A model generated the notes under the pieces. That model worked only from the letters and a program-made list of their open reading frames with translations, was not told the DNA's origin and made no database searches. Shown here piece after piece: positions 12,958 through 39,900 of a stretch of 58,930 bases of DNA. Where the stretch lies: IMG/VR virus record IMGVR_UViG_3300021389_000024, positions 1 through 58,930 of that record. The stretch is one strand, 5' to 3'. The translations under genes were made by a program, and so were the position numbers. The DNA comes from a virus. Lineage: Duplodnaviria; Caudoviricetes. Within the stretch, counting starts at the first letter, position 1. Each line of letters starts with the position of its first letter.

Positions 12958-15900
12958 TTAAAAAATAGACGCCGCAAAAGGTAGGTAGTCTTTAGTGTTG
13001 ATTGTTCTGTCAATGAATATATCATCAAAGCGTTCTGCTGTTGGGCCCAATGCAGGTAAGAACCAAGCATCGCCATAACGTTCAGCTTGTGCCATAGGCA
13101 ACAATAAACCGAATGGCCCATAAATACCAGATCTATCTAGTAGCTCAAACATGTAAGTGCCCCACGGCATTTTATCTGATCTAAAAGCTCTGTCTGCGCC
13201 AGCTTCATCACCTATTGCGCTTCGTCCTAAAAATTTAATAAACTCTCTTAGTTCTAAACCAATAGCAGTTAAAGGTAATAGAAGAGTTGCCATTATTATA
13301 ACGGGCATTATTCTACTGCTTAATTGCCCATCACTTCTATATTTATTTCTGCCCTCTCTAATAGCACCACCAACTATGTTTTTACCGTAAGCATAGAAGA
13401 AAGATTTTAATTGCCATACCAAAGCAAAGTATGGGTTTGAGGCCCACACAGGTCTTTCTGCAGCATTTGGCCTTACAATTGATTCTTCTACAAATCTACC
13501 TAAAGCTTCTTGTACTTTTTTCCCGCCTTCGGTGTCAAACCTTTTTTGGCCGTTTTTATTAGCGCTAGCCCATTCTAATACTTCGTCTGGGGTTAAATTC
13601 TTTTGAAGTTCTCCAAGATGTCTAATTGCAGTTTCATCGCCGTCTTTAGCTTTTTGAGCAAGTCTTATTAAATATTGTTGACCCATACCCGCTGCAAACA
13701 CACGTGTAAACTTAGTGTACTGTTCTAACAAAGTTATTCTAAAAAAGCCTCTTGCGTAACGTTTAGTGTCCTCTGTCATAAACCCAAGCTCTGCAGCGTT
13801 TATGTACATAGTTTCTATTGAGTCATGAGTAACAACTCCTAAATCTCTAGCAAACTGTTCTGCTTCTTTTTTGTTTTTAATTGTGTATTGAAGTTGTTCT
13901 ACAATAGTTCCAAACTTGTCATTCATGTCTTTTGATCTAAGAACTGGTCCTGCTAAATCAGGCAAGGAAGCAATTGCAGCAAAAGTTAAAAGTGTAACCA
14001 TATTACCTAAAAGGGCCCAACTGTTTAATTGACGCATAACTGGGCTCATGTTCATTCCAACTTTACCAAGTTGAGCTTCTATAGCTTTTCTAGCTCCCTC
14101 TCTGCTTGCATCATCTTCTATTCTAGAAAGCAAAATTTCCATAGCTCTCCAACCAGCTACTTCTGTTTCTCCCTCTGCTAACTTTGTTAAAACTTCTGCT
14201 TTGTTTTCACCGTACAACTCTTCTAATTTAGCTTTATCTGCTTCCGTTGGAGCAACAGTAATAGCTTTTTCATACTCTAGTTTTTTAGTAATGCTTTCTA
14301 TGTATGATTTAATTGCAAAATCAGCAGGTGCTAATAAGCCTGCATCTCCTTCTGCATTTATATCACCATTTGCATCTAATCCTCGTCGGGCTGCATGGTT
14401 AGGAATTTTGTCAAAGTATTTCTTTCTTTCTTGAGCCATACCAACAGAAAGTGTAGAAGCATCTTCTTCTGCACTTTGTTTTTCATTTCCTGTTGAATCA
14501 CTATCCTCGTCTGTTATTGCCCACGCTTCAACAAACGCTAACCAACTTTCAAACCCTTTAGGTTTTGCAACTGTAGGGTTGTATTTTGCTAATAGATCAG
14601 CAAGTTTTTGACGTTTTTGTGGGTCATTGACTATTGAAGATAAAAGCCAATGCCTACTAAAGAAATTTTCTTTGTAACGTATATTAGGGTTGTTTGGTGT
14701 TATGTAGGTTTCATAAAAGTCTTGCAAAACTTTTCTCATTGCTTTTGCAGCAACGGGTAAATCATTTGTGTTTACTCTGTCATCTTCTGCTTGTAGTGCA
14801 GCTTCTGCAATAAGCTCAATGTTTAATTCACCATTGCCATCTCTAAAAACAAGATTGCCATTTTCATCCCTAGTATCATACAAAGAGTTTAAATTTTGGT
14901 TTGTTATTAAAGTTCTTGCATTAATAAACCCAAACTTATCTTTAGAAGAAGAACGAGAATATAATTTTTTTGCTATATCTTTTCCGGCTTCACCTAATCC
15001 CCTTAAATACCCATCAGAAGTTTGTAGTAAATATGCAACAGACCAGTAGCCTTTGTCAGTGGTTTGTCCAGGAAGTTTAGCTCGAAGCATTTGTATAACT
15101 TTAGTTTTAATGCTTTCTAATGTTTGTCTACTTACAGATTTACCAGACTCTTTTATTGTTTCTTCGATTACATTTCTAACTTGTACTTCTTGCCCAAAAC
15201 TCATACCTTGCAACGAATCATGTAGGCTTTGATAAGTTCTTCCATTTTCCATAACTTTATTTACATAGGTTTCAAAATCCCCAAAACCAGATGCGGTTTC
15301 TGAAAACCTTTCTCCAAACACAAGATTTCGCATTTTTTTATAAACGTTTTCTATTTTTTTAAATAGCCTAGTAAAGTACCCGCTAACAAAATCGCCGCCT
15401 CGTGCTGTTTCTCCTGTTCTAATTTTCTTTAAAAGTACCGTTGCAAGTTTATCTGCAAACCACTCTTCAAACCCGTACTTAGAATTGTATTGTTCTTTTG
15501 CTTTTGGGTCTGTTGTAGTATCACGTTCTTTTTCAAAAGCATCCATTAAAAACTTTAAACCCCGTTGGTTTTTAAAAAGAAGTTGAAGTTCCGTTCTAAA
15601 CACTGCGTGGCCCATTTCATGTGTTAACGCCAACATTGCAACTGGTAAACTAACGCCATCTAACCTCTGTTGACCTGCTGTAGTTAAATCTGCGTTTTCT
15701 ATTCTGTTTTCTTCAGGAGATATTTCTCCAAACCTATCTGCAAAAAGAATGCCTTCTCTAGGTTGATTATAAAGCCCCGATACCCTACCACTAAACCCTC
15801 TGATTCTTTGTATATCTATTAGAATGACATCTTCATCTGTATCTGGCAGATACACATACTGCGCAAGTTTTTCGTCCTCTTGCATTTTTCTTGCATAAGT

Positions 15901-18900
15901 AAACAAAGTTCTATCTCTAAAAGATTCTTGTGTATCTTCAAGAAACGCATAATGCCCTACTTTTGTTGGCGTCATTTTTGATACTCTTTTAGACATCTGA
16001 GTCTGTTGAATTAATTCTTCTGGAGTTATCATAGTCAGCTTTCTGTTGTATTTAAAAATGCTTTTTGTAACTTCTAAAAGTTTATAAGCAAAATTGTTTT
16101 TAGAATCAGCGCTTTTACTAGGTTTTTTAGTTGGATCTGGGTTGTTGAAATAATCACTTACATTAGGCGAAATTGTTGCGCCTTGTAGCTTTAAAGGTCT
16201 TGTTGTGGTTTTTGGTTGGTTTTTTTGCGCAAATGCTTTTAAAGATTCTGCATGGTTTGGTCTTTGGTTAATATAATATAAAATTGTTTTGCCGGCTAAT
16301 TTACCTTCTGCTATTTGGTCTAAAACCCACTGTCTTCTTTCTTGTTTAAAATCTGTGTGGGCAGTGCCCTCTAGCCATTTTTCATATTGAATTACACTGT
16401 CTTCTAGATTTTTAGTTTTTCTTGCATCTCTAGCATTTGGTAAATGGCTAAAAGGGTTGCCGTAGTGTTTTTCGCCTGGTTTTCGTAAAACACTTATTCC
16501 CTCATTGTTTGCTTCTGCAGTTTTTACAGCTTGTACTCCATTTAAATATTTTATAGTTACTGCTCTAGTTTTGTCAGCATCTTCAGCTATTCTTTGTTGT
16601 AAATTGTTAAACCATGTTTGATTTAATACATCTACTGTATCTTCTTGATCATATTCACGTTCCGCGCCCTCAATTTGCTCTCGTTGTGCAGGCCCTGGGT
16701 CGGCGTAAAGGCTTGGATCGCCTATAGCAAACTCGTTTAAAGTTATATAACCCGCTCTGGGTTCATTTAATTCTGGATAATTTTCAACAAGAAAATCTAA
16801 AATAGCTTCTTGGTCAGTTCTGTCAAAAACAAGAGGAGAAAATGCAGGTCCCCGATCAACAGTATCAACGCCTGGAATTGATTGTTGTGGGTTAACATTT
16901 ACTGGGTCAGTGGGAACAACTTCTCCTGGAAACCTTTTGCTTATTTCATCTCTAAATAACCGATCACTTAAACCTTCTGGTGCTCCTACTTTTTCTATTA
17001 TTTGAGCTATAAACCCCTCTTTTCCAACGGCAGGGCGAGGGGCTCTTATATTCTGCCCACCTGGAAATTCAGCAGAAGGAACCCTTAAACCCTGACGAAT
17101 TGTGTTTTTATTAAATTTAACTCTACTATTTCCATCATCTATTTCTGTTATATTTTTAACCGTGCCACCGGGCCCATACTCTACGTCTATAGGAGCAATA
17201 ACAATTTCTTGTGAAGCGGTGTTTAAATATTCGATAATATTTTTTTGACTTCCCTTTACACCATAATGTAAAGGTCGGCCAATTGCTTCTAAATCAGCTA
17301 TTAAGGTAGGCAAAGCTTGCGCGTATCTAGCTTCTCTTGATATATTTAAATCAATCCCATCTCGGTCAATAATAAAATCAAGTAACTGAATAATACTTAC
17401 ACCATTTGTTCTACCATAAAGTTGATCCGGAGCAGCTGTTTTAGGTCTTAAGTTTTCACTAAACAGATTTGGTTGCGCATATACCCCACCCCTTACTGTA
17501 GGTTCTACAGCATCCATTTTTGTTGCAACAAGAGGGACATTAAAACCTGGTAGTTTATCTAGCCCAGTATCAGACGCATATTTTTTTCTTAAATCATCTC
17601 GAAGGTGTTGAGGATTAGTAGCATTTTGAATAGCCACATTTAGATCTTGATCAAAACTGCTTGATAAAACTCTTGCGTTGTAAGCTAGCTCACCCGCGTC
17701 ATTTTCTTGCACTTCTATACCAACATCTAAAGATGGGTCTCTTTTTTTAGCCTTCATTACCTCTGTAATAAGGTTTAATGGCACGTTATCAAAGTTAACG
17801 GTGCTTACTTGTGGGCCTATTGCATCTAAAAACTCTTGTTTTTCTTGTTCGGAAGGAGTTTCTTTTTGTTTTAAAGTATCACTTTCATATGCGCTAATAG
17901 CCCTTTTGGGGACTGAAAACAACAAAGTCCCCTCTACAAACTTGCCTGTTTGTAAAGTTTCGTCTCCTGCATCTGCAAAAACCCTACCATCATTATCATC
18001 ATCAGTTGCTTCTTCTGTTGGAGTTGTTACTCCTTCTTGGCTATCTCCCTCTGCAAATATATCTTCGGCAGTAGCAGCATTATTAGCCATAGCATCGGCC
18101 AATGCTTCATCTCTATCTTCCCCTAAATCTCTTGTTATTGGGCTAGAGCGTTGGACAAAATCTTGTATTGGGCTAGTAGTTTCTCCTTCGCCTTCTTCTT
18201 CTAACCTACGCGCTTCATACTGTGCTTCAAAAGAATCTTCTTGGTCTGCTAGTGGAGTAGCATTACTATCAACTAAATTAACAATATCATCTACAGTGTA
18301 TGTTTTTTGTCCATCTGGACCCGCGTTATCTTCTCTTAAATAACCTGCGTCTACAGCGGCTTCTATCAGCTGATCAACTCCCATGCCACCAGTTTTTGTA
18401 TAACTAAAAGTGCCCCTATCTAATCTATCTCTTAGTTCAGCAACCCCTACCGCTTTAGGATCAAGTTTGTTGTTTCTAAGAAAAGTTTTAAATGGTACAT
18501 TCTTTTTAACAGGTTTAGCTTTAGCTTTTGGTTTTCGTTTAGCTTTTGGTTTTAATGTACGTTGAAACCTTGAGGGCCTAGACCCCTGTAACTCCGCATC
18601 TGTTTCTTCACCAAAAAACAGTTCTTCTTGTAAAGGTTGAGTACGTTCAAAAAAGTCTGTTTCTGTTTCTGCTACGATTTCTGCATTAGGATTATTAGCT
18701 TGTAGGTTCCTAGAAGCGGCTTCAATAGATGCTTCGTCAGCAGGAACAGCTTCATAATCAATGGTTCTGCCTTTGCTATCAATGGCGCGTATGATAATGT
18801 CACCAGATTCAGGAAGTGCACTTAAGTTAAATAAGCCTTGAAATGTTTCAGGGTTAGTAAAATCATTTTCAAAAGCAGTACCTCTTTTTTCTCTACTAAC

Positions 18901-20427
18901 CTCGCTGTTTTGATCAAATACCAACACCCCACCAGCAGCCTCGTTTATAATCAAATTAGCGTCGGGAAATTTTTCTAAAATACTTGCTACATCAGCCCTA
19001 GTTTTATTTGGCATCCACACTAATGCTCTTTTAGAAGCCGGATCTAACATTGCTTCTATTTGCCCTTCATAATCATCGTCGGTTAATTCAACTTTGGAAG
19101 GATCAATACTACCAGTAAGGTTGTTATTAGTTATTCTAGCCTTGGCTTCATTTTGCAAATCTTGCTGCATTTCGCCGCCAGTAGAAATCATTTTATAAGC
19201 TTCTGCTATAACACCAGAAGGTGCTCCCCTTGCGCCACCAGCCATAGCACCCATAAACAAAGCTTCTATACCCCTAATTTTAGCTTCAGCTTTTGTGTAT
19301 TCTGGGTCTATTGCAAATCTTTGTTGGATAAGTATTTCTTCTTGTGCACGTTCAGTTAAACCCTCTGCTACTGCACTACCTGCAAAACCGACAGCGCCGG
19401 CTTTACCTAAATCTAATAAAAACTCACCTGCAGTAGAATCACCCGCAGCCTTTCTTAAAACTCTAAGATCTTTTTTAGAAAGTTCTCCTGGTTTATCTAA
19501 AATTTGTCTGACCGTGCTATTTTTCACTAAATCGCCTGTAGCTTTTTTAAACAAAGGCGCAAAGAAAGCCGCTTCTCCAACGACGTCTAAAACGGCTTGG
19601 GGAAAACCTAAAGCAACAGCCATTTTGGCTTCTTTTGCAGTTAGTTTATATCCAGCGTCGTCATACTCTTTAAATGATTGAGAAGCACCTACTATCTCGC
19701 CTTGTGTAAGTGCGCCTGTTACTGCACCTATAGTGGGAAGGCGCAGGCTTTCTGCTCTTGCTCTAGCATATTTATTACCCGCAACATCAAACATACCCCC
19801 TTTTCCTACTGGAGCTGACTTAGCATATTTTAAGCCATCAAACGTTGTATCTAAAATTTCTTGTTCTGCTTTAGTCAAACCTGGACCTCGGCCCAAATTA
19901 CCCATAACTTTTTTTCTTTGTATGTCTAAAAGCATTTGTTTGGCGTATGTTTTACCGCCCTGGCTTATAATTTGTTTACCTAAAAACCCAGCTAAAAGAC
20001 CAGTCCCCGCCGAAGCAAAAGAAAACATTGCCTGCGGAGTAGTCATTGTTATAGCTTTGGTACTTTGATCTAAAAAACCAGAAAAAGTAGGTTCATCTAA
20101 AAATTCTTCAAACTGTCCAAACGGCTCTAAAATAGTAGAAAAACTCTGTTCAAGTTCTCTTGAACGTTCCATTTTAGCTTCGGCAGCATCGGTATTGCCC
20201 CTCAAATAATCAACGATAGCACCAGCGGTGATTATGTCAGATTCAACTTGTTGTGCCCCAGCGCGTAAACCCGCAGATACTTGTCCACTAAAGCTAGTTG
20301 GGCCTACTACTGGGCCTTTTTGGTCAGGTTGTCCTACACGAGTTGGGCCTTTAACAGATGATAAAGATTCAACGTCTTGTTTTTGTACTGCAAAAAATTC
20401 AGCTAAAGGGTTAGAATTGTCAGCCAT
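12958..20427 (-). CDS. Large internal virion (DNA ejection) protein, polyvalent-like, with zincin motif
   Basis: 2489 aa; Gly/Ala-rich membrane-active N-terminus (AEGLTERAQE), THEMGH...EEWFAD, C-terminal QLKSFFY block typical of podovirus ejection proteins. Confidence 0.75.
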   Translation of the reverse strand: MADNSNPLAEFFAVQKQDVESLSSVKGPTRVGQPDQKGPVVGPTSFSGQVSAGLRAGAQQVESDIITAGAIVDYLRGNTDAAEAKMERSRELEQSFSTILEPFGQFEEFLDEPTFSGFLDQSTKAITMTTPQAMFSFASAGTGLLAGFLGKQIISQGGKTYAKQMLLDIQRKKVMGNLGRGPGLTKAEQEILDTTFDGLKYAKSAPVGKGGMFDVAGNKYARARAESLRLPTIGAVTGALTQGEIVGASQSFKEYDDAGYKLTAKEAKMAVALGFPQAVLDVVGEAAFFAPLFKKATGDLVKNSTVRQILDKPGELSKKDLRVLRKAAGDSTAGEFLLDLGKAGAVGFAGSAVAEGLTERAQEEILIQQRFAIDPEYTKAEAKIRGIEALFMGAMAGGARGAPSGVIAEAYKMISTGGEMQQDLQNEAKARITNNNLTGSIDPSKVELTDDDYEGQIEAMLDPASKRALVWMPNKTRADVASILEKFPDANLIINEAAGGVLVFDQNSEVSREKRGTAFENDFTNPETFQGLFNLSALPESGDIIIRAIDSKGRTIDYEAVPADEASIEAASRNLQANNPNAEIVAETETDFFERTQPLQEELFFGEETDAELQGSRPSRFQRTLKPKAKRKPKAKAKPVKKNVPFKTFLRNNKLDPKAVGVAELRDRLDRGTFSYTKTGGMGVDQLIEAAVDAGYLREDNAGPDGQKTYTVDDIVNLVDSNATPLADQEDSFEAQYEARRLEEEGEGETTSPIQDFVQRSSPITRDLGEDRDEALADAMANNAATAEDIFAEGDSQEGVTTPTEEATDDDNDGRVFADAGDETLQTGKFVEGTLLFSVPKRAISAYESDTLKQKETPSEQEKQEFLDAIGPQVSTVNFDNVPLNLITEVMKAKKRDPSLDVGIEVQENDAGELAYNARVLSSSFDQDLNVAIQNATNPQHLRDDLRKKYASDTGLDKLPGFNVPLVATKMDAVEPTVRGGVYAQPNLFSENLRPKTAAPDQLYGRTNGVSIIQLLDFIIDRDGIDLNISREARYAQALPTLIADLEAIGRPLHYGVKGSQKNIIEYLNTASQEIVIAPIDVEYGPGGTVKNITEIDDGNSRVKFNKNTIRQGLRVPSAEFPGGQNIRAPRPAVGKEGFIAQIIEKVGAPEGLSDRLFRDEISKRFPGEVVPTDPVNVNPQQSIPGVDTVDRGPAFSPLVFDRTDQEAILDFLVENYPELNEPRAGYITLNEFAIGDPSLYADPGPAQREQIEGAEREYDQEDTVDVLNQTWFNNLQQRIAEDADKTRAVTIKYLNGVQAVKTAEANNEGISVLRKPGEKHYGNPFSHLPNARDARKTKNLEDSVIQYEKWLEGTAHTDFKQERRQWVLDQIAEGKLAGKTILYYINQRPNHAESLKAFAQKNQPKTTTRPLKLQGATISPNVSDYFNNPDPTKKPSKSADSKNNFAYKLLEVTKSIFKYNRKLTMITPEELIQQTQMSKRVSKMTPTKVGHYAFLEDTQESFRDRTLFTYARKMQEDEKLAQYVYLPDTDEDVILIDIQRIRGFSGRVSGLYNQPREGILFADRFGEISPEENRIENADLTTAGQQRLDGVSLPVAMLALTHEMGHAVFRTELQLLFKNQRGLKFLMDAFEKERDTTTDPKAKEQYNSKYGFEEWFADKLATVLLKKIRTGETARGGDFVSGYFTRLFKKIENVYKKMRNLVFGERFSETASGFGDFETYVNKVMENGRTYQSLHDSLQGMSFGQEVQVRNVIEETIKESGKSVSRQTLESIKTKVIQMLRAKLPGQTTDKGYWSVAYLLQTSDGYLRGLGEAGKDIAKKLYSRSSSKDKFGFINARTLITNQNLNSLYDTRDENGNLVFRDGNGELNIELIAEAALQAEDDRVNTNDLPVAAKAMRKVLQDFYETYITPNNPNIRYKENFFSRHWLLSSIVNDPQKRQKLADLLAKYNPTVAKPKGFESWLAFVEAWAITDEDSDSTGNEKQSAEEDASTLSVGMAQERKKYFDKIPNHAARRGLDANGDINAEGDAGLLAPADFAIKSYIESITKKLEYEKAITVAPTEADKAKLEELYGENKAEVLTKLAEGETEVAGWRAMEILLSRIEDDASREGARKAIEAQLGKVGMNMSPVMRQLNSWALLGNMVTLLTFAAIASLPDLAGPVLRSKDMNDKFGTIVEQLQYTIKNKKEAEQFARDLGVVTHDSIETMYINAAELGFMTEDTKRYARGFFRITLLEQYTKFTRVFAAGMGQQYLIRLAQKAKDGDETAIRHLGELQKNLTPDEVLEWASANKNGQKRFDTEGGKKVQEALGRFVEESIVRPNAAERPVWASNPYFALVWQLKSFFYAYGKNIVGGAIREGRNKYRSDGQLSSRIMPVIIMATLLLPLTAIGLELREFIKFLGRSAIGDEAGADRAFRSDKMPWGTYMFELLDRSGIYGPFGLLLPMAQAERYGDAWFLPALGPTAERFDDIFIDRTINTKDYLPFAASIF

Positions 20428-33185: not shown

Positions 33186-33357
33186 AATTTTTCTGTGAAA
33201 ATTTTTTAGTAAAAAAACTATACCATATCACGTTCTCCTCTTCTCCTCGTTGTGCATTCAAAGAGGTTATCCCCCGATCCCGATTTCTACATCCAGCGTT
33301 TAACTTTTAGAGCTTTGGAACCTTGTCCCAGAAAATTCAGCTCCTCGAGGCTCGGAC

Positions 33358-33379
33358 CTGATCTCTATCTCTTTATGAT
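33358..33379 (+). promoter_or_regulatory. 22-bp conserved element, copy 1 (putative early promoter)
   Basis: CTGATCTCTATCTCTTTATGAT, identical to 34878-34899, ending in a TATGAT -10-like hexamer upstream of the first early gene. Confidence 0.5.
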
Positions 33380-34419: not shown

Positions 34420-34790
34420 GTTCAACGTGTGCCCTACTACTATCATCACGTAGTGATGTGGACGGTGCTTGCACCACGGTGAGAAAATGTTCCACATGTT
34501 CCACGCAAAAATCACCTTGTGGAACAAGTATGTGGAACACAACTTTAGTTGCAACCACGGGTGTTCAACGTGTGCTAGCACCGAAATGTTCCAATGTTCC
34601 ATCAAAAACAGAACTTGCGTAAGACTGACCGTCGACCGTTGTTATTTGTTCTTTAATTTTGTTAACCAAAAAGTACTGGAACACATGGAACATTTCCCAT
34701 TTATCCAGTAACCAAGCACCTTTCGCGTGTTCCACGAGGCCCATTTTACGTGGAACATTGTGGAACACGTGGAACATTTGTTTCAAAACA
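34420..34790. repeat. Array of TGTTCCA/TGGAACA heptamers (putative replication origin)
   Basis: 12 copies in three converging inverted groups within a region lacking credible ORFs. Confidence 0.7.
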
Positions 34791-34877
34791 GAAACCACTG
34801 GGCTTCGGTCTGGCTTCTTGGTTCTTTTAGCTCTGTTAAATAACCAGCTTTCTCTTAAACCCAAGCTTGGGTGGTTT

Positions 34878-34899
34878 CTGATCTCTATCTCTTTATGAT
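34878..34899 (+). promoter_or_regulatory. 22-bp conserved element, copy 2 (putative early promoter)
   Basis: Identical to 33358-33379; upstream of the RBS of the gene at 34925. Confidence 0.5.
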
Positions 34900-34924: not shown

Positions 34925-35206
34925 ATGACTAATTATTACAACAAACTTAGCTTACACGACAAAATGGCTGTTTTTCGTAGTCCAATGGAACAAAGCGAAC
35001 ACTGTCCAATATGCGACAAACATGTTCCTGATGTTCGATACAAAGGCACAGTGCATGAGTTAAAGCAAGTAAATGACGATGCATGGATTTTGGCTGATGG
35101 CTCAATCGCATGTGAAGATGGCCACGGCGGATTGATGGTCGAGTTATGCGTAGACTGTATTCAAGCCGGCAAACAACTTATCGAAAGATCAATAACCAAG
35201 ATTTAG
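34925..35206 (+). CDS. Hypothetical Zn-finger protein
   Basis: AGGAG RBS before ATG 34925; CPIC and CVDC motifs. Confidence 0.6.
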   Translation: MTNYYNKLSLHDKMAVFRSPMEQSEHCPICDKHVPDVRYKGTVHELKQVNDDAWILADGSIACEDGHGGLMVELCVDCIQAGKQLIERSITKI

Positions 35207-37257: not shown

Positions 37258-37335
37258 TTTCTTCTCCCTGGAGAAAACGGTTGGTAGTTATCCGCAAAAC
37301 TACCATATTTTTTTGCAAATAAATAGGAGTTGTGC

Positions 37336-37737
37336 ATGAATGAAGTTAAATATTGTTTTGTTATTGATCCCCAAAAAGAGGAAATCAGAGTTGTAGATCT
37401 GCCTGGCGACAAGCTAGAGCTAGCTACTATTTATGATTTATTGGAGTGTGCTACTTTTGATGTGCACCCATTAACTGCAGATACTGATTTGTTTATTGAT
37501 GATGAAGGATTGCTTGTTGAAGAACAACGATTCTTTAGTATTGACAACAAGGTATTTGCCGGCAACGGTTTAATCGTTGGCGCTGTTAACGAAGAGGGAC
37601 ATTCAACCACCCCTACCTACCCCGATGATTTCTTACCTGTAACTTTTATGCCTAAAAGCTATCAAATGGAAATAACCGCGGATGATTTAAACATTGAAAT
37701 CAGGAGGTCAGATGACACAACATACCAAGAAGCTTGA
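37336..37737 (+). CDS. DUF3846-like protein
   Basis: VIDP...IYDLLEC...DLFIDDEGLL...FAGNGLIVG...EG.S pattern; TAGGAG RBS. Confidence 0.7.
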   Translation: MNEVKYCFVIDPQKEEIRVVDLPGDKLELATIYDLLECATFDVHPLTADTDLFIDDEGLLVEEQRFFSIDNKVFAGNGLIVGAVNEEGHSTTPTYPDDFLPVTFMPKSYQMEITADDLNIEIRRSDDTTYQEA

Positions 37738-37882
37738 ACAACGAAGGAAGGAAATCGAACAAGAAAAAGCTAACAACACAATTGTTCAATGGGAATACCA
37801 AAAGGGTGGGGGGTTACATTTTAGAAAGGTAACTTACGCCAGCGGTAGAGTTGAGACTATTGAGTTTGGAAAAGAAAAGTAA
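37712..37882 (+). CDS. Hypothetical protein
   Basis: AGGAGG RBS before ATG 37712. Confidence 0.6.
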   Translation: MTQHTKKLEQRRKEIEQEKANNTIVQWEYQKGGGLHFRKVTYASGRVETIEFGKEK

Positions 37883-37883
37883 T

Positions 37884-38330
37884 TGACCGGGCGGTCGCAA
37901 GAGCTCACAAACTAGAACAGACATTGCAGCGATTCTATATTAAGCCCCCGATATTACTTTTTTAGGCAAAGGGTTTATTTTATTCCCCTTCATAATATCT
38001 TTGAAGTGCAGGTATTGCCAAAAGCACTTCACTTACAACATGGGTTTTGATTGGTAGTATACAACAAGCAGTCACTGAGTAGCCAACTGCACAAAACCCT
38101 CCTTTTTCGATGCAAGACTGGCAAGGTTAAGCAGTATTCGCCTAGTGATACTGGAAAAAGATAATGAAGCGCCAGCTCTTGTGCTCTTGTAAAGCTTCAT
38201 TATTGCACTAGGCACTATACAAAATTCCTCGCGGGATAGGGGGTTACACCAAAATAGAAATGACTAGCGTGTGTAATCAAATAGTCTAGGCAGGTAGCTC
38301 CTGCAATGTCCATTGTTCCCCCGCTTTTTA
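37884..38330 (+). ncRNA. Array of pseudoknotted RNA modules (ncRNA candidate)
   Basis: ~450 nt without credible ORF; five adjacent modules with closing stems and crossing complementarities. Strand assumed from flanking genes. Confidence 0.6.
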
Positions 38331-38349
38331 ACACACAGGAGGTGTGCTC

Positions 38350-38670
38350 ATGGAAATAGCCAATATTCATATACAAGTATCTGTTGATCCAGAAGAAGTT
38401 GTATGCAGAGAAAATGACTTTACAACTTTAAGTCAAGTTACTAAATATTGTTTAGCTTGGAAAAGTGATGTGCTTGAAGAACAAGATCTTGAAGCTCAAC
38501 TTGTGCATGTTATACGTACTTACAGAGAACACAATCAATTATCTAATAATGTTCCACTACTAGTAGGGGTGTGGTTTGAAACCCCATTTCCAGAACCCCA
38601 AATTGAGTGGGAACCATTATTAAACACACAACCTGATTTACGAGTCATACAAGGAGGTAAAAATGACTAA
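38350..38670 (+). CDS. Hypothetical protein
   Basis: AGGAGG RBS within a hairpin; C-terminal LRVIQGGK motif. Confidence 0.65.
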   Translation: MEIANIHIQVSVDPEEVVCRENDFTTLSQVTKYCLAWKSDVLEEQDLEAQLVHVIRTYREHNQLSNNVPLLVGVWFETPFPEPQIEWEPLLNTQPDLRVIQGGKND

Positions 38671-38851
38671 ACAAATTAAATGGCGTGCTACTTTAAACTA
38701 CAAAAACCAACAAATAACTGTAGAGTTTCAAGCACCGCCTTATGACAAAAACATAAACTACTCACACTTAGCGCGAGTAGAATTTGTACGCATGCTTAGA
38801 AATTATGCATCGCCTTTAAAAATAACCAATGTTGAGCCTGTTGAAAGATAG
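38663..38851 (+). CDS. Hypothetical protein
   Basis: AAGGAGG RBS. Confidence 0.6.
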   Translation: MTKQIKWRATLNYKNQQITVEFQAPPYDKNINYSHLARVEFVRMLRNYASPLKITNVEPVER

Positions 38852-38877
38852 GCTTACTCAAATCTATAGGAGGATTT

Positions 38878-39900
38878 ATGAACAACATTAACCCAAACGA
38901 TCTTAAACAAGAGATCAAAGATAACATCCGTACAGGACTTAACACCATGATATGGGGTGGGCCAGGTATTGGTAAGTCAGATATACCACAACAGGTAGCT
39001 GATGAACTAGATATACCTTTGCTTGACTTTCGTGCCAACTTATTCGACCCAGTCGATGTGCGTGGCATACCTCACATTATGCAAGAACAAGAAACAGGGA
39101 AGCGTTTTACACGTTGGGCAGTGCCTGATGTGTTTCCTATTGCATCACGTGATGGCGAAACGGGAATTCTCTTCATCGACGAATTGCCAACTGCACCACC
39201 AGCTACGCAGAACGCTTTCCTGCAACTCTTGTTAACTCGACAAATTGGCGATTATGAAATGCCAGTTGGCTGGTCAATTGTTGCCGCAGGTAACAGACTG
39301 ACTGACTCAGCTGCTGTATTCCAAATGCCAACACCAGTACGTAATCGTCTATTGCATTACGAACTCGAAGCAAGCATTGATGACTGGGTTGAATGGGCTT
39401 TCAAAAATGGTATTAACTCAGAAGTTATTGGCTTCTTACGTTACAGACCTGGTTTACTTAACAGTTTCAAAGCTGACGAATATGCATTCCCAACACCACG
39501 TTCGTGGGCATTTGTTGACAAAAAGCTAGCCAATCGACCGTCGACCGCCAACGACGATACATTGTTCTTTGGTGTCGCAGCGACAGTCGGCGACGGCCCA
39601 GCTGGCGAGTTTGTTGCTTACAAACAAATAGCTGACAAGCTACAAGATGTCGACGAACTTATCAAAGATCCTGGTAAATACAAGAAAGATGACAACCCAG
39701 CTGTCTTGTATGCACTTTCAACATCTATCGCCACCCGAGCGAGTGATGACACTCTCGAAAATATTATCAAAGTATGCAACAAACTCCCATCAGAGTTCCA
39801 AGTAATACTAATGAAAGGTATTTTTGCAATCAACAAAGACTTTATCAAGAATCAATTTTGTACTAAATGGATTCAAGATAATCACGGCTTATTATCATAG
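38878..39900 (+). CDS. AAA+ ATPase (MoxR/dynein-related type)
   Basis: Walker A GGPGIGKS, Walker B LFIDE, AAGN, PVRNR, FPTPRSW. Confidence 0.9.
   Translation: MNNINPNDLKQEIKDNIRTGLNTMIWGGPGIGKSDIPQQVADELDIPLLDFRANLFDPVDVRGIPHIMQEQETGKRFTRWAVPDVFPIASRDGETGILFIDELPTAPPATQNAFLQLLLTRQIGDYEMPVGWSIVAAGNRLTDSAAVFQMPTPVRNRLLHYELEASIDDWVEWAFKNGINSEVIGFLRYRPGLLNSFKADEYAFPTPRSWAFVDKKLANRPSTANDDTLFFGVAATVGDGPAGEFVAYKQIADKLQDVDELIKDPGKYKKDDNPAVLYALSTSIATRASDDTLENIIKVCNKLPSEFQVILMKGIFAINKDFIKNQFCTKWIQDNHGLLS

Follow-up and report, generated by a model that had tools for sequence, protein, structure and literature searches.

Why would the early region of a tailed phage genome keep 467 bases of non-coding DNA between two small genes? 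The question is raised by a complete viral record of 58,930 bp, the whole stretch of DNA analysed here (hereafter, the window), in which the - strand carries the structural genes and the + strand carries early and replication genes. The window encodes a P22-like portal, a family A DNA polymerase and a primase-helicase with 30-32% identity to the counterparts of Aeromonas phage phiA008 and Pseudomonas phages KPP25/phiR18. The gap (37883-38349) lies between early genes for proteins of 56 and 106 aa. The original prediction described it as an undescribed cassette of five structured RNAs (modules A to E; Table 1) in a host-takeover region; the complementary words that it named are all present at their given positions, and the regional label is one that we infer from the position among small early genes without assigned function. 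Other features of the same genome include a 2489-aa open reading frame within the structural module (12958-20427, - strand), a dense array of about a dozen direct and inverted TGGAACA/TGTTCCA copies at 34480-34780, which is devoid of a convincing gene and looks like origin iterons or a regulator-binding array, and a 21-nt word, TGATCTCTATCTCTTTATGAT, found at 33357-33379 and 34877-34899, 5' of two genes (the first on the + strand and the one that starts at 34925), which may be a phage-specific promoter or operator.

Each + frame of the gap is interrupted by 8-10 stops. ARAGORN identified no tRNA or tmRNA genes in the whole window, and Rfam 15 yielded no match at gathering score anywhere in it; at E<=10, the interval 37700-38500 returned just four snoRNA/lncRNA noise rows of 13-20 bits versus thresholds of 40-80, in agreement with the original prediction, which could recognize no known ribozyme, riboswitch or tRNA consensus. 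None of 50,697 phage records matched 37600-38700 in a DNA search. A scan for sigma-70-like promoters detected no promoter-like site on the + strand of 37883-38349, and a terminator scan found none on either strand, so that the array would be read through together with the neighbouring genes. Four marine RNA-seq libraries from a single study supply contigs that span all of 37400-38900, as expected of the transcribed region originally predicted, bearing in mind that such libraries can contain DNA. Being contigs, these data carry no RNA-end information; the contig ends at 37929 and 38004 were rejected as RNA ends because they fall on a polymorphic base and a repeated word. The word TTGAC is found 0-3 bases past the stop codon of the upstream gene in the window (37883-37888) and in relatives L010, L021, L125 and L191, where it opens arrays whose first modules (A, A', A'' or X) are unrelated; its interpretation as a -35 box was rejected, since no -10 box lies at 16-18 nt in any lineage inspected by eye.

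Table 1. Coordinates of the modules, their pairings and the surrounding features of the window.
Feature	Position	Strand	Pairings and remarks
Upstream gene, 56 aa	37712-37882	+	Without family match; homologues in 11 related loci
Module A	37884-37950	+	Closing helix 37889-37892 / 37944-37947; register two bases off fits equally
Module A, inner helix and crossing pair		+	Inner helix 37895-37898 / 37929-37932; crossing pair 37913-37917 / 37933-37937; no variation
Module B	37962-38032	+	P1 37965-37968 / 38016-38019; Pb 37970-37973 / 37986-37989; S1 37995-38000 / 38010-38015; S2 38002-38009 / 38024-38031
Module C	38042-38099	+	Closing helix 38042-38049 / 38092-38099; encloses conserved 25-nt 3' half (AAGCAGUCACUGAGUAGCCAACUGC)
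Module D	38102-38213	+	PK1 38112-38122 / 38171-38182; H2 38132-38137 / 38148-38153; H2 loop 38140-38147 pairs with 38206-38213 (PK2); H3 38161-38170 / 38194-38203
Module D, outer helix CUUUUUC/GAAAAAG	38102-38108 / 38154-38160	+	Weak, 70% paired
Module E	38222-38327	+	P0 38226-38228 / 38234-38236; P1 38239-38243 / 38318-38322; P2 38245-38249 / 38269-38273; pseudoknot 38262-38266 / 38282-38286; P4 38278-38280 / 38313-38315; P3 38290-38294 / 38300-38304
Leader hairpin CACAC-AGGAG-GTGTG	38332-38346	+	Contains Shine-Dalgarno of the 106-aa gene
Downstream gene, 106 aa	38350-38670	+	Without family match
Plain terminator-like hairpin and U run	37282-37305	+	5' of the DUF3846 gene

Thermodynamics alone gives no support for five units. 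Minimum free energy z-scores relative to dinucleotide shuffles were -0.82 (+ strand) and -1.37 (- strand) for the whole gap, and -0.19, -1.90, -0.87, -1.40 and -1.11 for modules A to E, respectively, on the + strand, so that the anticipated folding better than dinucleotide shuffles did not materialize. Perfect Watson-Crick complementary words separated by at most 130 nt are in excess, with 13 words of 7 nt versus 3.9 +/- 2.5 expected (13 is reached by 5 of 1000 dinucleotide shuffles) and six of 8 nt versus 1.0 expected (six is reached by 9 of 1000). Since nested-only energy models are blind to crossing pairs, comparison with relatives is the real test, and the comparison with marine phage contigs was decisive. 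The control for covariation consisted in sliding helix partners by 1-3 columns; the alignments are small, with 7-15 sequences from few lineages.

The gap has a mosaic make-up. Thirteen related loci were found via the neighbouring ATPase and, with the loci from pattern scans added, both flanking genes are present in 25 loci on 17 different contigs; the interval that these genes enclose ranges from ~21 bases (L003) to ~670 across related loci. The 17 contigs display 10 module layouts: no module, only a 21-nt ribosome-binding leader (L003, one contig); A'-B (one); A-B-E (three); A-B-D (two); A'-B-D (one); A'-B-E (two); A-B-D-E (two); A-B-C-D-E (the window, which alone has all five); A-B-B with an extra gene (one); and A'-B-E with the extra gene of the A-B-B layout (three). 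Furthermore, RNA-library contigs join 38029 to 38213, 38215 to 38327 and 38032 to 38329, thereby removing C+D, E and C+D+E, respectively, as exact units. The modules are dispensable and coexist as variants in nature and, given that they are gained and lost one by one in relatives, the five units drawn in the original prediction are real. Other phages carry unrelated first modules (A' or A'') in the place of A, and further structured-looking modules (X, F, G and others) are seen in the 300-600 nt arrays of relatives (L125:3829-4190, the array regions of L134 and L072, L191:4007-4500 and L002:3430-3545). Judged by appearance, the cassette library exceeds the five of the window, with ten or more putative motifs across related loci. 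The leader hairpin is repeated on either side of the extra 117-aa gene (L004:4097-4440 and L010:4112-4459) and seems to be a recombination point for gene cassettes.

The units also travel to other places in the genome. In related phages with which the window has the ATPase, the polymerase and other core genes in common, E and C are found at a different intergenic site; in L125, this site lies 3' of the final gene of an operon and holds module X, E and C in this order, with a bidirectional terminator hairpin and then a convergent gene behind them, whereas the corresponding site of the window contains only 24 bases and the terminator. Elsewhere, C is located directly 3' of X, E or another module, F. 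The site 5' of the DUF3846 gene is occupied by a plain hairpin and U run in the window and in L007/L008, by the structured module G in L003 and L013, and by G together with B in L002 and L010. Hence, the units are exchangeable between intergenic sites and between phages. The genes that follow E vary by phage group, including the 106-aa family (two groups), the inserted 117-aa gene and those for 83-aa, 82-aa and 116-aa proteins, whereas no co-directional gene lies close behind E in L058, L125 and L134. Because the downstream genes differ and E occupies a second site, E is not the leader of one gene family, and a riboswitch or leader of that kind was rejected, its position relative to the kind of gene not being constant. 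No protein partner common to the E-bearing phages was found beyond core replication genes.

Covariation, which the original prediction called for, was found, and it is strong in B and E. A degenerate pattern for E retrieved 108 stretches, which reduced to 15 distinct E sequences after L087, L120 and L137, devoid of the 3' half, were dropped. In the plain MAFFT alignment of these 15 sequences, 94.5% of the cells are paired versus 36-52% in slid controls, and 13 of 26 pairs are altered on both sides versus 1-3. The 5' hairpin P0 is supported, P3 (GCAGG/CCUGC) is a freely varying hairpin, and the 3-bp P4 switches from CAA/UUG to UAU/AUA. Two helices of E had been drawn incorrectly, namely, the closing helix P1, which is GGGGG/CCCCC (GAGGG/CCCUC in other phages) rather than GCGGG/CCCGC, and P2, for which the register is UACAC/GUGUG. 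The pseudoknot GACUA/UAGUC displays no variation in any copy; as with several other module pseudoknots, this invariance leaves it a candidate pairing. UUU follows two bases past P1 in 13 of the 15 copies, and a covariance model of E, run over 1.3 Mb, detects a single copy per contig and no further matches.

The pattern for B yielded 23 distinct sequences, eight of which lacked the upstream helices and were dropped (L016, L017, L030, L031, L035, L039, L041 and L043); the copy in L042, truncated by the contig end, was excluded from the alignment. In the remaining 14 sequences, 95.1% of the cells are paired versus 30-42% when slid, with double changes in four pairs of S1, four of Pb and one of P1 (GGCA/UGCC to GACA/UGUC). 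S2 was fixed by the search pattern, and an additional copy of B detected by the covariance model in L021 carries S2 as GAAGUGU/ACACUUC, a compensated pair. The pairings GGCA/UGCC and GAAGUGC/GCACUUC proposed originally are accordingly kept, whereas GATATTA/TAATATC is not and gives way in relatives to ATATCT/AGGTAT. The loop of S1 is the 5' arm of S2, and the succession of S1, a 1-2 nt loop, S2 and an A-rich third loop of 8 nt is the textbook layout of an H-type pseudoknot, with P1 extending S1 on the 3' strand. From the geometry of the model, P1+S1 and S2 may be mutually exclusive, in which case B may have two states. At least four U occur within 8 nt after S2 in 8 of 15 copies, most of them just 5' of a ribosome-binding site or of another copy, whereas the U run is lost in the window. 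One or two copies of B are present per locus or contig examined; those of L004 and L021 are doubled, with spacers of differing sequence. A short word that B may have in common with the ToxI repeat carries no weight in the analysis.

The remaining modules display less variation. For A, with seven close copies only, 96.9% of the cells are paired versus 33-53% when slid, and 2 of 4 pairs of the closing helix are altered on both sides (GC, AU, GU). This is a little covariation, which upholds the closing helix, while the inner core TCGC/GCGA and the crossing pair UAGAA/UUCUA (TAGAA/TTCTA) are invariant and stand as predicted pairings. In C, compensatory changes between lineages affect the closing helix, for which 12 distinct copies present the versions GGGUUUUG/CAAAACCC and UGGUUG/CAACCA and a third, ambiguous one; this helix of the original prediction is kept, while the predicted inner pairs are invariant save one G-U. 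Over 64 nt, the copies of C in the window and in L125 share 97% identity. Four of the 16 stretches of viral contigs matching an 18-mer of C (L212, L215, L218 and L219) are unrelated and were rejected. In the version of C from L209/L220, the 5' arm of the closing helix is also pairable internally (UUGGUU with AACCAA or AAUCAA), making an alternative fold possible there.

Compensatory changes between lineages were likewise found in D, for which a second lineage (L190, L191, L229 and L230) and six near-identical metagenome variants were available. MAFFT misaligned the 5' parts of C and of PK1 of D between lineages, and those pairs were counted by script. The 11-nt crossing pair PK1 retains 10-11 of 11 pairs despite four positions differing on both sides, and the 10-bp hairpin H3 shows one AU to GC change and two G-U changes, so that both pairings of the original prediction stand; its outer helix CTTTTTC/GAAAAAG, in contrast, is weak and missing from the second lineage. 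H2 (CAGUAU/AUACUG) and the 8-bp pair PK2 (GCCTAGTG/CACTAGGC, in RNA letters GCCUAGUG/CACUAGGC) show no variation and stand as predicted pairings. A search pattern for the D hairpin gave two matches, both unrelated, and one for the crossing pair gave 61 stretches, among which just L190 and L191 represent D. The sole tandem repeat in the gap, an 8-nt unit present twice, is inside D; in the hairpin loop 38175-38190, GCTCTTGT is doubled, and the 5' arm of the crossing pair thereby has a choice of two partners.

The supported helices of B and E frequently contain G-U pairs, which are also present in A and D. Given that a G-U pair would be A-C on the opposite strand, the folded RNA is that of the + strand, which is the gene strand. 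These results bear on the two readings under which the modules would not be functional RNAs. One is that they are chance stems within decayed coding sequence, for which the unremarkable folding energies and a - frame that is uninterrupted in 10 of 15 copies of E (and, in D, in a single lineage) might be invoked. However, covariation of B and E far exceeds that of the slid controls, complementary words are in excess, the units are kept in unrelated flanks, copies differ by indels of 1-12 nt, and C, D and E have no + frame that stays open from copy to copy, B having one in just 5 of 14 copies. Conserved small ORFs, the other explanation considered at the outset, were not found, and the chance-stem reading is very unlikely already. 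Alternatively, the modules could be selfish or neutral small mobile DNA elements, their closing helices corresponding to terminal inverted repeats and their spread to recombination at short shared words. The exact insertion and deletion of units conforms to this reading, as do the 7-nt GAACATG on both sides of C in L058/L125, GCACTT...TTTTT at the B insertion 5' of the DUF3846 gene, and GCACTTCAC and GCACTAGGCAC at the C+D junction. But covariation extends to internal helices and crossing pairs, its G-U intermediates being confined to one strand, which argues for selection on RNA rather than on DNA ends; in addition, E occurs once per phage, B is limited to one or two copies per locus or contig examined, and no transposase is nearby. 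We regard mobile DNA as a distinctly improbable explanation. The gap thus holds what was originally proposed, an undescribed cassette of structured RNAs: five separately conserved units with + strand covariation and without an Rfam 15 match, present or absent as units.

What such cassettes do can be approached from their positions. The mode that we tentatively put first, with somewhat restrained confidence, is cis-acting punctuation of the transcript, that is, termination or pausing, processing of linkers and protection of ends. Five self-contained cassettes would form part of the early polycistronic + strand transcript, each folding alone, with a closing helix around a pseudoknot or loop-to-tail pairing, each separated from the next by a short A/U-rich linker, and each open to gain, loss or relocation as a whole. 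Located at gene borders, the folded blocks would pause or stop RNA polymerase and, after cleavage in the linkers, shield the ends of the neighbouring messages, and pausing and shielding together would set the amounts of the flanking early proteins. In the case of B, S2 with a U run could be the stop signal, which the alternative three-way junction P1-Pb-S1 could switch. Whereas the units, their strand, most pairings, their mobility and their dispensability are observed, termination, processing and protection are suggested by positional equivalence with plain terminator hairpins, by the U runs and A/U-rich linkers, and by the 3' end location in L125, in which X-E-C, 5' of the terminator, takes the place of a 3' end element.

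Several observations do not sit well with punctuation. The array of the window has no terminator-scan match and its B lacks the U run; P1+S1 and S2 of B are perhaps, on geometric reasoning, unable to co-form; loop and junction sequences are conserved across unrelated flanks beyond the needs of a stop signal or end cap; and a succession of five intricate, differing folds is more than punctuation calls for. The conserved loops and junctions and the variety of folds fit specific binding or catalysis better, which gives weight to two other functional readings. The cassettes might act in trans: once released from the early transcript, each would bind a small molecule or a protein of host or phage, serving as decoy, sponge or inhibitor; with a target such as an RNA-recognising defence protein, the array would be a strain-variable accessory RNA toolkit similar to anti-defence gene islands. 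The accessory and strain-variable nature of the cassettes, their location among small early genes without assigned function, the conserved loops and junctions in otherwise unrelated flanks and the occurrence of the same units at two intergenic sites are in line with this, and the accessible text on pseudo-ToxI of phage TE, an intergenic antitoxin-mimic RNA, supplies a precedent (PMC3475682). Conversely, Rfam gave no match, including to CRISPR repeat and antitoxin models as far as Rfam holds them; the gap contains no tandem repeats of a unit, type III antitoxin-type repeats of ~34-40 nt included, and no promoter of its own was found in it; and the 18-mer of C gave two chance matches only, both within unrelated sequence, in 185,579 prokaryote species genomes, so that no host original for mimicry was found. 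On balance, a role in trans appears rather unlikely. Less probable still is that one or more modules are new self-cleaving ribozymes cutting the early transcript between genes, which would resemble the hammerhead, twister, pistol and hatchet clusters near phage genes. The size of 58-112 nt, the pseudoknots, the covarying stems with conserved junctions, the side-by-side arrangement of several motifs in phage DNA and the pistol strand order of the E core are all compatible with that reading, as is the association of known classes with phage genes and other ribozyme genes in the accessible text of PMC4604425, but no Rfam ribozyme family matched at E<=10. It is conceivable, if doubtful, that the array is an RNA counterpart of a phage anti-defence island, in which every cassette, as a folded RNA of its own kind, disables or diverts another host protein, or that it contains a new ribozyme class, with E the best candidate; phages would trade the cassettes between intergenic sites like accessory genes.

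Orphan structured RNAs in phages are already known as a kind. What stands out here is that unrelated pseudoknotted motifs behave as interchangeable cassettes, strung in one gap and moved between intergenic sites, and that none of the five in this combinatorial array has a counterpart in Rfam 15. Should punctuation prove true, the array would be a new, elaborate form of gene-boundary element; should the cassettes act in trans or self-cleave, they would be new functional RNA classes for which natural knock-outs exist in the form of close relatives with single units or all of the array missing. We found no description of such arrays in the literature; a 2023 catalogue, according to its accessible text, predicts more than ten thousand candidate structured RNAs in viruses, and its supplements may list some of the motifs (PMC10690425).

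Among known RNAs, the pistol ribozyme bears the closest comparison with E, as P2, P4, P3 and the pair 38262-38266 / 38282-38286 match the pistol strand order, the first three covarying and the pseudoknot being invariant. As in pistol, the hairpin loop pseudoknots with the stretch between the 5' arm of the closing helix and the second hairpin, the size is ~50-100 nt, and the RNA occurs in phage-related DNA. However, the pistol junction that holds the cleavage site is, in the accessible text, strictly 2 nt (PMC4604425), whereas E has eight conserved bases there (AAUGUCCA, 38305-38312, of similar length in 15 of 15 copies), in addition to an extra outer helix P1 and a 5' hairpin P0. With neither a 2-nt junction nor a match to the Rfam pistol model, E is not a pistol. 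The neighbourhoods in which several different self-cleaving ribozymes are found near phage genes (Weinberg et al., 2015, as represented in the accessible text of PMC4604425) similarly place unrelated small pseudoknotted motifs side by side in phage intergenic DNA, but no known class is present here, and the units abut in one gap and are swapped between close relatives.

Parallels also exist with other intergenic elements of phages. As far as the accessible texts describe them, the PeSL cassettes of T4-type phages (PMC2839356, PMC4122927) are short conserved intergenic motifs that border variable gene cassettes and are subject to modular shuffling, much as the leader hairpin described here flanks an extra gene in L004 and L010; PeSL, however, consists of a promoter and a simple stem-loop, whereas no promoter consensus was found on the + strand of the gap, and the array comprises five or more unrelated kinds of pseudoknotted fold, 58-112 nt in size. 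In the accessible account, pseudo-ToxI of Pectobacterium phage TE is likewise an intergenic phage RNA that works as RNA and varies between isolates (PMC3475682), but is a tandem repeat of a 36-nt unit mimicking a known host antitoxin, and neither such repeats nor a host original were found for the array. B resembles H-type operators, such as that of T4 gene 32 in the accessible text of PMC10690425, in its layout and in its location 8-15 nt 5' of a ribosome-binding site at several loci; it differs in not being bound to one gene family, in the extra covarying P1 and hairpin Pb, and in the U run that often follows. Pistol, the ribozyme neighbourhoods and pseudo-ToxI all fail to fit the array in their defining features, and PeSL probably does too; whichever mode applies, the alignments already supply testable structures for five motifs.
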